Shown: positions 27,849 through 34,408, counted from the stretch's first letter. The stretch is 46,537 nucleotides of DNA from a virus (IMGVR_UViG_2563366953_000003); one strand, 5' to 3'. Translations and numbers: made by a program. The notes: generated from the letters alone by a model not told the origin.

Positions 27849-28337
27849 ATGGCTACCAACCCAAGAGAGCACGCCCGGCGAGTGCTGGACACGTTCTGGT
27901 GCGGGCGTGGTTTCCCTGTTGATCCAGCGAAAATTGCTCACGACATGGGATTAGATGTTTTTATTACCGATCTTCCTGGGAAAGTTTCTGGCGCACTGAT
28001 TAAACAAAAAGATCAAGATCCAGCGATCTTTCTAAACAGTGATGACAACAAAGTTCGTCAACGTTTTTCATGTGGGCATGAGTTGGGGCATTACATCGCC
28101 CGGCAAGCATCGCATAGCGATGAATATGAGTACGTTGATTTACGTGGCGAAACCGCAAGCGCCGGAACGCATCCTGATGAAATTTTTGCGAACAAGTTCG
28201 CAGCAGAACTTCTGATGCCGGTTGATGAGGTCAGAAAACTACACGCTGACGGCCAACCAAGTTATATAATGGCGCATTATTTTGGCGTATCTGACGATGC
28301 GATGACTTATCGTTTAAAGAACTTGAGGTTGGGGTAA
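27849..28337 (+). CDS. ImmA/IrrE-family zinc metallopeptidase (M78-like)
   Basis: 162 aa with HEXXH motif (SCGHELGHYI) in the typical ImmA context; GGAGG RBS 6 nt upstream; opposite strand to flanking phage genes. Confidence 0.7.
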   Translation: MATNPREHARRVLDTFWCGRGFPVDPAKIAHDMGLDVFITDLPGKVSGALIKQKDQDPAIFLNSDDNKVRQRFSCGHELGHYIARQASHSDEYEYVDLRGETASAGTHPDEIFANKFAAELLMPVDEVRKLHADGQPSYIMAHYFGVSDDAMTYRLKNLRLG

Positions 28338-28346
28338 CGCTTTAGA

Positions 28347-28952
28347 ATGCCATCGGATGACGATTTTAACAGCCGTTTCAAACAGGAAGTTGCACGCCGA
28401 CTGAAGGATTCCCTCAACCTACACCGTCAGTTAGCAGAAGAGGTTGAGCCGGAGGAGGATGAAACTCCGGTTCAGTCTCCTGATGAAACTTCACCTCAGC
28501 CAAAGATTTCGCACGCCCCCAAAAAACCGTCTGTCCGTATTCACGGAATAGCCAGAAAAAGAGCTGCCGAAGCTCGCAAAATGGCTGTAGCTGCGTCAAT
28601 CAAAAGAATTCCAACTGCTACACTATCTCAACAAGTCACCCGTACTGAGAGTAAAATCTTGACCGAGTTCACATCAGTGAAACAGGTGAATTCACTTGAT
28701 ACTGAGCATGAGCGCAAACAACTCAACAACAAAGATTTTGAAGCTGAAATCGATCTAAAAAAACGCTATGGCAAATGGTTCCTGATTATCCTTGCTTGCC
28801 AGCTTTTAATAATGAATGGTGTATTTTTTGCCACTGGTGCTGAATGGCTTGTATTTAAAGACTTAACGCTCCAGTTGTACATGGGCGGTACTTTGACAGA
28901 GGTATTCGGCCTCGTGCTGGTCGTGACAAAATACCTTTTTAAACGCAAGTAA
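28347..28952 (+). CDS. Membrane protein: charged low-complexity N-terminal region, two C-terminal TM helices
   Basis: 201 aa, 9 nt downstream of the ImmA-like gene (operon). Hydrophobic segments WFLIILACQLLIMNGVFFATGA and LTEVFGLVLVVTKYLF. Confidence 0.5.
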   Translation: MPSDDDFNSRFKQEVARRLKDSLNLHRQLAEEVEPEEDETPVQSPDETSPQPKISHAPKKPSVRIHGIARKRAAEARKMAVAASIKRIPTATLSQQVTRTESKILTEFTSVKQVNSLDTEHERKQLNNKDFEAEIDLKKRYGKWFLIILACQLLIMNGVFFATGAEWLVFKDLTLQLYMGGTLTEVFGLVLVVTKYLFKRK

Positions 28953-28977: not shown

Positions 28978-29010
28978 AGGCCCTGATCAAAGGGCCTTGA
29001 TAAATTAGCT
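28978..29010 (+). terminator. Weak terminator-like hairpin after the ImmA-membrane operon
   Basis: AGGCCCT-GATCAA-AGGGCCT followed by an interrupted T-tract. Confidence 0.3.
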
Positions 29011-29554
29011 GTGCGTTGAAAACAGATAGTTATTCCCATTAGTTCCAACGTAATACACATCAAAAAAATCACCATTCTTTTGCTCTAACGTCAACACCTA
29101 CCCTTAAAAGAATAATTCTCTAAGAATGAGAGAATGTTGTGTGTATTAGATAAGATATGAGCTGACACATCTATGGCGTGGAGCCGAATTTAATTTGACA
29201 GTCCACTTTGTGCCAGGAACGGACCTTAAGAAACTATCCGTAATCTTCAGGCCGATTTGTATGTCTATACCTTACAGAACTGCCAGGAGTTATTGATATT
29301 TGATAGTCGGTGAATAGCTGGCGACAATCCCCCCATATATTATATAGTAAAGATAAATTACAACTAAAAAATCATAAAAAATATCATCCATGCCTGTATA
29401 GTTTTTTAGAAGGGCTGTTTCATATGAAATGAATGCCAAAAAAATTTAGATCATGTTTTTATTTCCACATCTTTTGAAGATTTTATTTTCAATATTATCT
29501 ATCTCTTTCCTCACCCATGAATTTTCTCCAGCAGAGATAAATTAAAAAATCTCA

Positions 29555-30907
29555 CTACGCATCTATTTCGGCATAGAACATTCGCAAAATAAATTTTCTA
29601 AAGTGCTGGTGGGATTTAAGGAAATTGACGCCTAAGTATGGCATGTCTCCATGAAGAGGGTGGTTTTCCAATCCGTTATTCTTACAAAAATCATAATCTA
29701 ATTTAAGAATGTCAGTATAGAGATGTCGTATTAAACCTGTAGACCTAATAGCGAAGTTATTACAGAAAACATCCTCAAGTAGAGACCTTTGATAGATTTC
29801 CCAATTCATAAAGCCATATTCAACGTGGACGTATTTCCCATCTGTATTTCTAGTGGTGAGTTCAATTACCTGCTTACCTATACGATATAATTGAGAGATC
29901 CATGTACAATGTAAACCACTTAGGACATCAATATTAGCCTCATATAGTTCTCCTTCACCTAGTTTACCAATTAATTCAGATATGTGAGGAGTGTAAGAAT
30001 TTGGGTCTGGAATATCATCATAGTTGTCGTCTTCTGTGGATAAATGCTGGACACTCCCGACAGCATAAGGATTCATGCCAACTAGTACTAATGAATTCGT
30101 AAAAGGTAATGCCTGAGATAATTCAGGCCATAACTGAGAGCAATAAGTAAAACCATGAACTCCAGATTCTTCCATATACTGAGCTGCAAGGCAGGAAATG
30201 TTATCAAATTGACTAACAAATGAATGTAAAAGTTCTTCTCCTCTAGCTGCATCCCATCGCTCTGCGTCATACTCCCAGGATAATTTACAGACACTAAAAC
30301 TATCTTCTCTAAATGCAATATTTGAGAAAGTCGCTAACTCTGTTTGGTCTGGAATCCATAATTCAAGTTTAAGAGAGGTAATATCAAGAGGATCAGAGAA
30401 TGTTGGAATTAAAGTAATGATATCCCTATTGTCAAATATTAAACTTTGGATGACAGCATCACGTGCTATTCTGGTTTCCATTGGTGATATTAAAATATAC
30501 ACACTGTCATTTTTCGTCATGGATGGAAATAATGTTGTCATATGGTTTGAATATGCTAACAATTCAGTGAATGCTTGCCTTTCAGTTTGTTCACTTTTTT
30601 TAAGCTCTATGACAGCAAGCCCAGTATCATCACAGAATATAGCCAAAAAATCGGCTCTAATTGTTGAGTTTGAATTTTGTTCTAAAGGAACTTCGCAGCC
30701 GATAAATTCCAGTCCATAAAGCTTAGAGTGAAGATTGGATAGTTTACTATTTATTCTGTTTTTTATTAGCAGTTGTGCTGTTACATCAGAGAGATCTTCG
30801 TTGAATTCAAGTACTTCAAGACCTGCAGGTTCAATAAGCAGTTCGGGAAAATTGTTCCTATTTTCCCATATGTAATTTTGTATTTCCTTTTCTGTGAATT
30901 TAATCAT
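29555..30907 (-). CDS. Hypothetical protein with N-terminal PD-(D/E)xK-like nuclease signature (AT-rich island cargo)
   Basis: 450 aa; IRADFLAIFCDDTGLAVIELKKSEQ has the D...(D/E)xK pattern; strongly AT-rich codon usage unlike the flanking phage genes. Confidence 0.5.
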   Translation of the reverse strand: MIKFTEKEIQNYIWENRNNFPELLIEPAGLEVLEFNEDLSDVTAQLLIKNRINSKLSNLHSKLYGLEFIGCEVPLEQNSNSTIRADFLAIFCDDTGLAVIELKKSEQTERQAFTELLAYSNHMTTLFPSMTKNDSVYILISPMETRIARDAVIQSLIFDNRDIITLIPTFSDPLDITSLKLELWIPDQTELATFSNIAFREDSFSVCKLSWEYDAERWDAARGEELLHSFVSQFDNISCLAAQYMEESGVHGFTYCSQLWPELSQALPFTNSLVLVGMNPYAVGSVQHLSTEDDNYDDIPDPNSYTPHISELIGKLGEGELYEANIDVLSGLHCTWISQLYRIGKQVIELTTRNTDGKYVHVEYGFMNWEIYQRSLLEDVFCNNFAIRSTGLIRHLYTDILKLDYDFCKNNGLENHPLHGDMPYLGVNFLKSHQHFRKFILRMFYAEIDA

Positions 30908-31440
30908 TAATCAACCCTTATTATTACTTATATAATTGCCACCATCTTGATGGTTATAAAATTATGTACAATTAATTATATTTTTTAAAGTTACGGCCTT
31001 CAGTGTTCCCTAATGTACTGTTTCATATGTAATGATATCTATACTGTCTCATCTAGCAAGGTTACAAACAAAATTTTTCTTCCGGAAATGTGATCATGGC
31101 GATAAATCAACATGAGAGTTTATCTACATTGTACATAGTTAAAGCATAAGCAGGTGTGAGTAAGAAACTAGAGCATACTGAAGATTCGCTTGCTCACTGG
31201 AATTACACAATTTTACTGAGTGGATGGCGTTGCATCGACCCGTTGAACTCACAGCCATGAGCGGACATGTTTTACAGCGGAATAAATTCAGCATAGTTAG
31301 TGGATTTACACGGAGGATTAGTTTTTGAGAAATCTTGATAAAATTGTAGAGCTTGTTAATATGAAAACAAGAAATTAAACTAACAGTCAAATAAAGAAGC
31401 TCAAACACATCCCCTACTTAATTGAAAAGGATTATTAGCT

Positions 31441-32340
31441 ATGATTGCCCCACTTATTAGTAACTTACAGAAAGATATTGCGCTACTTCAGCTTTATATC
31501 GAACAACGCAAACAGACTGGCTTTCATGACATGGAAAGAATGATTGAGTCATTGACCATTTATATGTTTCGCGCACTGAAAATGGGGGAACTGGAAAACA
31601 TGAATCAGATTAAAGTTAACTTTCCCGCCATTGATTTAGCTGACAATAAAAACATGATAGCAGTTCAAGTTACAACGAAAGCAACCCCGGCAAAAATTAA
31701 AAAAACAATCGCAGCCTTTGAAAAAGAAAATAAATCAGGAAAGAGTCTAAAAGACATATACCCTTTTTTATATATTTTTGGGTTTTGTAAAAGCTCAAAA
31801 TGCTCAGTTCCAAGTTATTGTAAAGTAATCGACCCCAGCTATTTTGTAAATGAACTTTGCGATAAAGCAGATGAAAATATGATCCTTGATATGCTTGATG
31901 CCATTCATCGCCATCAGGATTATACATTATTATCGCCATGGGATGATAGAGATTCACTCGAAATAATACTCAATGTTATTAATCGCAATGCTATTAAACA
32001 CAGGATGAGTTGCGAAGGAAGCATATCTGATATGCTTGCCGGTTTAAAAGAAATTAACGAAATAATTACAAAAGGTACAATCCAACGTAAGCAACGTTCA
32101 AAATCGATATCTGATTTCAAGGATCAAAGCATGGTTAAATTCCTGAGAGGTGTAATGGATGATCTGTCTGTTATTCAAGCCATAGTGAACAAATCAAAAG
32201 TTAACCAAAGTGATATGGTTTGTATTAGCTCTGAAGATATGATTAACATTGATAATTTAAAAGATAAAATTGCAAACGATTCATCAGAGATTGCAAGGCT
32301 AAATAATATTGATATAATACTAAAAATTGTTGAATTATAA
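31441..32340 (+). CDS. Hypothetical protein (AT-rich island cargo)
   Basis: 299 aa, AT-rich, divergent from the 450-aa gene across a roughly 530-bp AT-rich intergenic region. Confidence 0.45.
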   Translation: MIAPLISNLQKDIALLQLYIEQRKQTGFHDMERMIESLTIYMFRALKMGELENMNQIKVNFPAIDLADNKNMIAVQVTTKATPAKIKKTIAAFEKENKSGKSLKDIYPFLYIFGFCKSSKCSVPSYCKVIDPSYFVNELCDKADENMILDMLDAIHRHQDYTLLSPWDDRDSLEIILNVINRNAIKHRMSCEGSISDMLAGLKEINEIITKGTIQRKQRSKSISDFKDQSMVKFLRGVMDDLSVIQAIVNKSKVNQSDMVCISSEDMINIDNLKDKIANDSSEIARLNNIDIILKIVEL

Positions 32341-32667
32341 GTAGCGATTTAATAATAACAAATAATAAACAGCAGGCTTCATTGAATAATATTTATTTGG
32401 AGCCTCTTTATTGTTTATCGACTTTATTTCTTCACTTATACCTGTCCTGTTGAAGAAGACCGTTATGTACAAGAAGCTGTTAACATAAGTGAGCATCATT
32501 ATCTATGATTAGGAAAAACATGGAAAAGTTTGTACTGAATTTTTCCAACGTTTTGACAAAAGTCTGTAATCCTGCAGTAACTTGATGAGGTGGGGCGTGT
32601 TGCCCCTACCCCAGCGAGTTAATAAGTAATAAGAAAATGGCACCCTCTAATATTATTTTTAAATTTA

Positions 32668-33333
32668 CTAATTATGTTTATTTTTACCAACAACCACATA
32701 TGAACTGCCAGCTTTGCTCCATGACTTTATTACTGCTAAATTGTTATCTAAGCAAATTTTACTTACAATATTCTCATCCAATAAGCCATAATAGAAAGCA
32801 TTGCGAGAGTTTTGGTATATATATCCATGCAAATGTTTAATTCCAGTCTCATACTTTTTGAAATAAGAGCTTTTGTATTGATTAACAATAATTGCTTCAC
32901 CATCATTTTTTAATAATCTCCCAATCTCATTGATGATTTTGTAAATTGTTGATTTACATGGAATTGCGGAAAGCACGTTTGCGCAAAGTATGAAATCATA
33001 ATTATCTTTTATTTTATCTATACTTTCAAAAGGGACAACATTAGCATTTTTATAATTATTAGCCACATACTCTGGAATTGTGGTTTGTACGCCTCTGATA
33101 ATTTGCACTCTTTCTAACTGTTTTCTGGAATCTAAAAATGTCACAGCTTCAAATTTATTTACTAATTGTTCTGAATATCTAAGCTTTCCACATCCGAAAT
33201 CAAGGGCTATGCCATTTTTAACAGAATTTTCAATATAGTTACAGAGATAGTTAGATGGCATAGTATGCGGTTTTGCTGCATTTTCTGAACGTATAGTCAT
33301 TCCATTTATTTTGTAATTCAAAACTAACCTCAT
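32668..33333 (-). CDS. Class I SAM-dependent methyltransferase (small-molecule/RNA type, not an obvious DNA MTase)
   Basis: 221 aa; motif I LDFGCGKL, acidic post-I VTFLD, motif II FDFILCANVL, motif III LLKNDGEAIIV; no DPPY/NPPY-type motif. Start ATG abuts the upstream stop (TAAATG). Confidence 0.65.
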   Translation of the reverse strand: MRLVLNYKINGMTIRSENAAKPHTMPSNYLCNYIENSVKNGIALDFGCGKLRYSEQLVNKFEAVTFLDSRKQLERVQIIRGVQTTIPEYVANNYKNANVVPFESIDKIKDNYDFILCANVLSAIPCKSTIYKIINEIGRLLKNDGEAIIVNQYKSSYFKKYETGIKHLHGYIYQNSRNAFYYGLLDENIVSKICLDNNLAVIKSWSKAGSSYVVVGKNKHN

Positions 33334-34041
33334 TTAAAAAATACTGTTATTATTAAAAAATTCCTTTATCTTATCATCAGGTATTTGTCTGACTTGGCCT
33401 TCAGTTCTGGGTTTAACGGATGCAATAAAAATAAGAAAATTAAAGACAACAATAAAAATAACCCACAACCAAAGATTTTTTAAAGAACCGGTTACAGAGA
33501 GTAAATGGGTTATTTTAGCAAAACTTATTACTAAAACAGTAATAAATGCAATCACAGTATGTTCAAAGAAAACCCAAAAGTAATAAACCTTATTCCAGAA
33601 GAGCTCAACATAATGTTTATCTTTTAACTCATTAACTTCTGGGTAATACAGTTTGTTCATTACTTTGGAGGATTCATCACTAGTTAATTTTCTTGTAATG
33701 CCTGCAACTTGCGCCAATGGTTTAACAATTAAGTAATTATCCCATGCTTTTCTTATTCCAAGAATTTTTGCCACGTTATTATGTAGATCTAAAGCCCCAC
33801 TAATCACAGACCAAAAAATTGAGAATGCAATTGGTAATATGCCGAATGTTAATATCCACTTAATAAATTCTTCGTAGTCTTTGATTGGTGGAATGTACTT
33901 GGCATTAATTCCAACCAATGGTATGTAGCCATAAATAACCAATGATAGGTAAAATATAAATGTAGTAATAAAAGTTGCCTTATGGAGCATGGGTAACATT
34001 TCATTATAATTCTTTGGCGGTTCTAACATTTTACTCTCCAA
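33334..34041 (-). CDS. Polytopic membrane protein (co-operonic with the methyltransferase)
   Basis: 235 aa with about 4-5 hydrophobic helices; AT-rich. Confidence 0.5.
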   Translation of the reverse strand: MESKMLEPPKNYNEMLPMLHKATFITTFIFYLSLVIYGYIPLVGINAKYIPPIKDYEEFIKWILTFGILPIAFSIFWSVISGALDLHNNVAKILGIRKAWDNYLIVKPLAQVAGITRKLTSDESSKVMNKLYYPEVNELKDKHYVELFWNKVYYFWVFFEHTVIAFITVLVISFAKITHLLSVTGSLKNLWLWVIFIVVFNFLIFIASVKPRTEGQVRQIPDDKIKEFFNNNSIF

Positions 34042-34408
34042 ACATTCAGAAAACGTTAGTTTTATATAATTGCACGATTTTACTAACGCACTTAAAGTTT
34101 AAATACTACTAGTCTTTTTATTTAACACTGCAATTTTATCTAAATCTTATTGATTGATCTAGTCCTCGAAGAAGCCTGCCATACATATATCTTTTCTGAC
34201 TGCATCCACTTTTATGTCTGTCACATCCACACTAGCTCCTGTAATATTTTAAATACCTCAAATCCGTCATCAGTACCGACGCTTAAATGTTCGATCCTCA
34301 CTCACTGCGGACCCTCAGCTCAGCCAGATAGTCCGCTTTGTGACAAAAGTGGAAGTAGCTAACAAGTATCCTAAGCGCAAATAGAGTATTTCCGCCCCAA
34401 ACAACCTG

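Follow-up and report, generated by a model that had tools for sequence, protein, structure and literature searches.

The gene at positions 31441-32340 (+) of the window, by which we mean the whole 46,537-nucleotide stretch of DNA analysed here, encodes a stand-alone SMEK-family protein of 299 amino acids. On balance, this protein would probably serve as a single-gene defence against phages or plasmids: a nuclease that its prophage carries as a moron and that a C-terminal helical bundle governs in a regulatory or sensor role. Judged from its sequence matches, the protein is a true member of the SMEK_N family, in which a known effector domain is set in an unstudied, minimal architecture of about 300 amino acids; a literature search on stand-alone SMEK proteins found nothing relevant. 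It is possible, at a likelihood somewhat short of even, that these proteins make up a previously unrecognised single-gene immune system, a SMEK nuclease under a minimal 170-residue sensor, borne by prophages, plasmids and defence islands in Proteobacteria and beyond. If the inference of a defence nuclease holds, the protein would rank among the smallest defence proteins to combine sensor and effector, and the SMEK/Mrr-like effector would have been swapped among Argonaute, STAND and minimal stand-alone scaffolds. Such a protein would also offer a tractable model for how nucleases of this kind are silenced and switched on.

The window is a lambdoid Escherichia coli prophage, 99.9% identical to that of strain YZMc3-1. 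An ATG-initiated open reading frame spans exactly 31441-32340 on the plus strand, stop codon included, as the initial annotation had it, and a ribosome-binding site (AAAGGA) lies 10 nt 5' of the start. Upstream is a conserved leader (31254-31440, +), defined by alignment of the surrounding block in three backbones and alignable with a Qin-type E. coli allele of the gene (L001); within it, a sigma-70-like site (TTGATA-16-TG-TAATAT, 31335-31362) matches 9 of 12 consensus positions, in a consensus scan only. The AT-richness and the Lys/Asp/Ile-rich composition described in the annotation both hold. The gene has a GC content of 33.1% (GC3 29%) versus 47.5% for the whole window, and Ile (12.4%), Lys (9.7%) and Asp (8.4%) are abundant in the protein, as are Leu and Ser. 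The gene is contained in an AT-rich island of 5 kb with sharp borders (about 29000-34100, 33% GC), which is bordered on one side by an ImmA/IrrE-type peptidase region and on the other by genes for the ORF6N antirepressor and for replication. Against three homologues, dN/dS by the Nei-Gojobori method is 0.19-0.38. Given these ratios and the 99 homologues described below, the reading frame is not a chance one; the gene is a functional coding sequence under moderate purifying selection.

The gene had been called an orphan, a label that no longer applies. The remote homology search that the annotation had proposed recovered 99 homologues, mostly full-length, at 43-98% identity, and the RefSeq name of an identical E. 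coli protein is "SMEK domain-containing protein". The N-terminal region (approximately residues 1-125; 31441-31815, +) is the SMEK_N domain, a putative Mrr-like PD-(D/E)xK-type nuclease module according to Pfam, NCBIfam, PADLOC and PDB profile matches. Residues 5-120 match Pfam SMEK_N (PF21941) with an E-value of 2.8e-23 and 82.8 bits, above the gathering cut-off of 27, and the same domain is found by NCBIfam NF033859 (E 1.1e-31; 108.6 bits, cut-off 30). In PADLOC, the Argonaute-associated REase-type effector model Aga_REase-PNTD1-PNTD2 (PDLC02399) matches residues 6-113 (E 5.9e-20), and PDLC02415 matches residues 45-95 weakly; beyond the N-terminal domain, none of the known or candidate defence models of PADLOC-DB 2.0 matches the protein. 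A profile of the family also matches one solved structure over residues 25-140 (E 4.4e-11), PDB 26bh, entitled "Mrr domain from Kordia jejudonensis Mrr-APAZ pAgo". In the clade S2B short pAgos, SMEK has been described as the effector, an Mrr-like nuclease (bioRxiv 10.1101/2023.06.08.544223; PMC10810196). The KjAgo/SMEK-APAZ heterodimer of Kordia, the one SMEK complex whose activity is reported in the literature, is said to have weak collateral DNase activity (PMC12205087; PMC10810196).

Conservation within this domain also overturns the earlier statement that the protein has no recognisable catalytic motif. In a 52-member alignment reaching down to about 20% identity, E36 (codon 31546-31548), N55, D65 (31633-31635), Q76 (31666-31668) and K85 (31693-31695) are invariant and T78 (31672-31674) is nearly so, all five of these codons being on the plus strand. 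They belong to a signature, E36 followed by NFPAID(65)LAD...AxQ(76)VT(78)...K(85), that is invariant or nearly so across the family, and its general form, E...NFPAIDxAD...AxQVT...K, is complete in the window protein (E36, N60-D68, Q76, T78 and K85). The NFPAID-AD...QVT...K portion is invariant across stand-alone, Kordia APAZ, STAND-fused and PIN-TPR-fused proteins. These residues may form a variant PD-(D/E)xK site, with the Glu in helix 1, the Asp where strand 2 begins, QxT in strand 3 and the Lys in the helix that follows. The AlphaFold model of the domain is alpha/beta, with an order of secondary-structure elements compatible with such a site.

The putative motif is non-canonical, as D65...Q76-V-T78...K85 has QxT and a downstream Lys in place of (D/E)xK. 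Foldseek comparison of the full-length model with the PDB gave no significant match (best E 0.65), its list including only weak restriction endonuclease entries (EcoT38I and BglII) and Rpb5. Likewise, 16 SMEK_N domain sequences showed no link to Mrr_cat or other PDDEXK families of Pfam at E-values up to 10, with the sole exception of one BglII match (E 0.12). Because the motif is non-canonical and Foldseek found no significant match, the nuclease fold is assigned from sequence homology and from the naming of the domain by others.

The remainder of the protein (approximately residues 128-299; 31822-32337, +) is a family-specific domain, delimited with the structural model and profile searches and predicted to fold as an up-down helical bundle of about 170 residues. 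Conserved positions in it are D169, R182, A184, E192, G193, G212 and K221. Neither Pfam nor PADLOC gave a match past residue 120 or so. When a profile of the domain was compared with 1.84 billion representative proteins, only 84 clusters were found. Fragments aside, their lengths all fall within 274-320 residues and the position of the domain is constant; SMEK_N was at the N-terminus in all 10 distant matches tested. The domain was undetectable in APAZ proteins, STAND proteins and SMEK_N proteins of 321-362 amino acids. With all filters off, its best E-value against SMEK_N proteins of about 500 amino acids was 0.11; these presumed pAgo partners are about as long as the Kordia SMEK-APAZ protein, which was among them. 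The C-terminal domain is thus private to the SMEK architecture of about 300 amino acids.

One feature of the bundle recalls HEPN RNases, whose active site would here be R182-x4-H187 (RNAIKH) and would make the protein a dual nuclease or an RNase toxin. In the window protein and its closer relatives, one helix of a four-helix bundle does carry R-N-A-[IV]-x-H, and R182 is conserved in at least 90% of the family. However, H187 is replaced by Asp or Gln in many distant members, and no HEPN family appeared in Pfam scans of 18 C-terminal sequences at E-values up to 10, leaving an RNase function for the bundle very unlikely. The protein is accordingly not classed with the HEPN RNases.

The SMEK_N domain itself recurs in other settings. 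It is fused to AAA_16/nSTAND NTPases in proteins of about 1,100 amino acids from Stutzerimonas stutzeri and Massilia soli, and it occurs in a 1,304-amino-acid PIN-TPR-GreABC protein of Chryseolinea (the fused loci being L055:7986-11303, L065:7986-11294 and L063:7770-11684). Together with its presence in the proteins of about 500 amino acids that have the size of the Kordia partner, this makes SMEK_N a modular N-terminal effector.

Of the systems already described, the SMEK-APAZ partner of Kordia KjAgo ("SPARMA") is close in its effector. The N-terminal domains are homologous (E 4.4e-11), the NFPAIDLAD/QVT/K signature is identical and the nuclease domain is N-terminal in both. The window protein, however, is about 300 rather than about 500 amino acids long and has no APAZ, carrying instead the unrelated, family-private helical bundle. 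It was also not assigned to the short Argonautes: there was no APAZ match, and no Piwi or Argonaute match in the neighbouring genes (those for a 450-amino-acid PD-(D/E)xK-like protein, a class I methyltransferase and a membrane protein). Lacking both APAZ and an Argonaute neighbour, the window protein has no guide-RNA-based sensing. The STAND NTPase defence proteins (Avs-like) share with it the proposed effector-then-sensor logic, and SMEK_N is found N-terminal there too, but the window protein lacks both an NTPase and a repeat sensor domain; that role, if the bundle is regulatory, would fall to 170 helical residues.

These parallels suggest how a stand-alone SMEK protein might work. The SMEK_N domain would be a DNA-degrading effector that the C-terminal bundle holds in check. 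On sensing a cue of infection, the bundle would oligomerise or change conformation and so license the nuclease, which would then degrade DNA, either aborting the infection or destroying the invader. The regulatory role of the bundle is proposed by analogy with APAZ and STAND scaffolds, which keep N-terminal nucleases of this or a similar kind under control. We infer for the window protein a nuclease activity, a defence role and a sensor role of the C-terminal domain. The defence nuclease reading draws on the identity of the SMEK_N domain, its conserved signature, the published accounts of SMEK in short pAgos, its modular use as an effector and the private C-terminal domain, as well as on the lack of a conserved neighbour, the defence and mobile-element context, the patchy distribution and the purifying selection. 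Against it stand the non-canonical motif, the lack of a significant Foldseek match to the PDB and of any PADLOC-DB 2.0 match past the N-terminal domain, the weak activity reported for the Kordia complex and the absence of the gene from sequenced phages, 50,697 records of which contain no DNA or protein match to it.

Alternatively, the protein could be a solitary modification-dependent restriction enzyme of a type IV-like kind, in which SMEK_N cuts and the C-terminal domain recognises modified or foreign DNA. Such an enzyme would leave host DNA intact and would not depend on a methyltransferase, an antitoxin or a trigger. The gene does stand alone with no conserved partner and resides in R-M and defence islands, and tolerance of a nuclease that has no immunity gene beside it is in keeping with a specificity for non-self DNA. 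Moreover, the domain is called Mrr-like by others, and the SPARDA preprint names the modification-dependent AspBHI as its closest nuclease homologue (bioRxiv 10.1101/2023.06.08.544223). Like Mrr and other type IV enzymes (PD-(D/E)xK, Mrr_cat), the window protein is solitary, lacks a cognate DNA methyltransferase and is resident in defence islands. Unlike them, it has no HMM match to Mrr_cat, has QxT...K in place of (D/E)xK and contains no known DNA-reader domain. In Mrr and AspBHI-type enzymes the domain order is opposite to that of the SMEK protein, the nuclease being C-terminal in the former and N-terminal in the latter. In every other architecture found, furthermore, SMEK_N is an effector on a sensor scaffold. 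A type IV-like activity is therefore an unlikely explanation for this gene, though the foremost among the alternatives considered here.

The distribution of the family was used to place the proposed defence nuclease in its genomic context. SMEK homologues are scattered over Proteobacteria, Verrucomicrobiota, Planctomycetota and Campylobacterota, and in E. coli the distribution is patchy, with 151 carriers of the gene among 5,426 complete genomes (about 3%). The homologues reside in defence islands and mobile elements. The Citrobacter locus, for example, includes LmuB_C (Lamassu-type), AAA_15/21 and ArdC; that of Yersinia, AbiGi, an N6_N4 methyltransferase and type IV secretion genes; and that of Cupriavidus, HamA (Hachiman-type) with a helicase, and SymE. 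An integrase, a resolvase, AAA_13 and HNH_2 are found at the Enterobacter locus and SLATT_5 at the Pseudomonas locus. Among 128 ORFs within 5 kb of the gene in 18 species, strong PADLOC matches comprised type I R-M, GajB, a CBASS cyclase and 4TM effector, a defence reverse transcriptase, ShosA, IetA/IetS and PDC-S21, and Pfam matches included Mrr_cat, a pPIWI-associated nuclease, TrwC relaxase and IS66 transposase. Defence proteins make up a few per cent of a typical bacterial genome. The roughly 10 found in 128 neighbouring ORFs are well above that background, a general figure rather than a formal control.

No gene accompanies the SMEK gene throughout. Across 18 species-level loci, neither tblastn nor all-against-all clustering of neighbouring ORFs identified a conserved partner; the search covered 22 loci, with the 450-amino-acid, methyltransferase and membrane proteins as queries and all ORFs clustered, and at these 22 loci only antisense shadow ORFs grouped together. 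The gene shares several features with the single-gene defence morons of lambdoid and P2-like prophages: it is AT-rich and accessory, has a promoter-like site of its own, lies in a variable region of a lambdoid prophage between immunity and replication genes, and is patchily distributed across genomes. It differs from known prophage morons in matching no PADLOC-DB 2.0 model other than that of the Argonaute-associated REase domain.

One locus among the homologues appears misplaced. A SMEK gene whose product is 83% identical to the window protein is present on a 3,048-bp contig labelled Streptomyces sp. NPDC088196 (L003; NZ_JBFBIU010000052.1). The gene looks to be an enterobacterial contaminant and not one native to Streptomyces, since the contig is tiny, the assembly is that of a high-GC actinomycete and the identity equals that of the Qin-type allele.

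In the window, the nearest gene on the left is divergent from the SMEK gene, as was originally described: it encodes a nuclease-like protein of 450 amino acids (29555-30907, -) and is separated from the SMEK gene by a 533-bp spacer. The initial annotation had offered two readings of this arrangement, a two-component system or two independent, horizontally acquired single-gene morons. For the former there is the adjacency and divergence of the two genes, both in the window and in five E. coli genomes with the same prophage. These five are, however, the only ones of the 5,426 complete E. coli genomes to carry the 450-amino-acid gene, which is missing from 146 of the 151 that have the SMEK gene. 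Within about 8 kb of SMEK homologues, no relative of the 450-amino-acid gene was found at any of the 18 species-level loci for which flanking DNA was available, nor at 14 further SMEK loci; conversely, three loci in Serratia and Aeromonas with relatives of the 450-amino-acid gene have no SMEK gene nearby. In addition, the conserved SMEK block starts at 31254, inside the spacer, in three mobile-element backbones, so the "divergent" spacer is a junction of separately acquired modules. Co-occurrence across genomes thus refutes the two-component system, which we regard as scarcely credible, and favours independent morons, each of the two genes occurring without the other.

The 450-amino-acid gene is itself probably an independent single-gene defence candidate. 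The protein has a classical PD-(D/E)xK-like segment (ADFLAIF...VIELKK) and weak matches to HSDR_N (E 0.0027) and PADLOC REase_II (E 0.0022), together with one to phrog_30092 (E 4.6e-11). Its family is widespread and solitary, with 232 clusters in Serratia, Vibrio, Aeromonas, Bacillus and Bacteroidota, one of which is named DUF91 by a source. The Serratia homologue adjoins a SIR2_2 and DUF87 pair, and the Aeromonas homologue sits between tkt and an adh gene.

To the right of the SMEK gene are two genes that do travel with it in some lineages. The first, convergent with it across a gap of 327 bp, encodes a class I SAM-dependent methyltransferase of 221 amino acids (32668-33333, -), recognised by matches to Pfam families of the Methyltransf_11/12/TehB type. 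Immediately upstream of this gene on the same strand, and in a two-gene operon with it, is the gene for a predicted multi-pass membrane protein of 235 amino acids when read from a TTG codon (33334-34041, -; ORF and RefSeq annotation). The RefSeq start is an ATG at 34029, giving 231 amino acids. The membrane protein matches no Pfam family, its homologues are almost all from Enterobacterales, and its gene adjoins a methyltransferase gene at every place read.

These two genes and the SMEK gene form a block of about 3 kb, running from 31254 to about 34188 (compared with L001:7995-10899) or to 34313 (compared with L095:5813-8873). Collinear copies of the block occur in Qin/DicB-type prophages (83% nucleotide identity) and in an IncHI2A conjugative plasmid of Citrobacter koseri (89%), and all three backbones, the lambdoid prophage included, share one left edge. 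In the plasmid copy, a recombinase gene lies just 5' of the block. The search for terminal repeats or att-like sites bounding the block gave only short AT-rich matches compatible with chance. Among them is a 17-nt direct repeat near both edges, AATTACACAATTTTACT at 31201-31217 and AATTGCACGATTTTACT at 34068-34084, identical at 15 of 17 positions, which may be due to chance in such AT-rich DNA.

The block raises the possibility that, in enterobacteria, the SMEK nuclease, the membrane protein and the class I methyltransferase act together as a three-gene system, for example by methyltransferase-dependent self-protection or by membrane-linked sensing. In favour of this, the block is collinear at 83-89% in three unrelated backbones with a common left edge. 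Both halves are also present in 151 complete E. coli genomes, where the membrane-protein/methyltransferase pair shows the same 5/146 split into identity bands as the SMEK gene, and dS is similar for the SMEK gene (0.19) and the methyltransferase gene (0.18). More distant SMEK homologues tell against it, since at 18 + 14 loci with identities of 78% or less neither a methyltransferase nor a membrane-protein relative was found within 7-8 kb. The pair in turn exists without SMEK in Cronobacter and in P2-like prophages of Providencia and Enterobacter (E. asburiae). Moreover, the two units face each other across 327 bp and hence do not form an operon, and the methyltransferase resembles small-molecule enzymes of the TehB/Methyltransf_11-12 type, with no DPPY/NPPY-type motif on reading of its sequence. 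A three-gene system thus appears improbable, more so than a type IV-like enzyme, although in enterobacteria the single-gene SMEK protein might additionally cooperate with the pair that travels with it. An R-M pair of the SMEK protein with the adjacent methyltransferase was likewise set aside, as no DNA-methylase family was matched and the linkage is confined to the enterobacterial 3-kb block.

The methyltransferase and membrane-protein genes are accordingly the only recurrent neighbours of the SMEK gene, and in enterobacteria alone. The pair is a mobile module of its own (32668-34041 in the window; L089-L094; L095:7228-8589), occupying the moron site beside ogr in the P2-like prophages of Providencia and E. 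asburiae. The AT-rich island as a whole is pieced together from three modules that move independently of one another. Along with the corrected orphan call, this matters for the annotation of prophage morons and for the design of knock-outs. Flanking the island is the ImmA/IrrE-type M78 metallopeptidase (PADLOC capP-like, E 2.4e-25), which together with the next gene occupies 27849-28952 (+). No HTH partner gene is evident beside it on the island-flanking side; directly after it is the gene for a 201-amino-acid protein with a hydrophobic C-terminus that matches phrog_5346 (E 1.9e-129).
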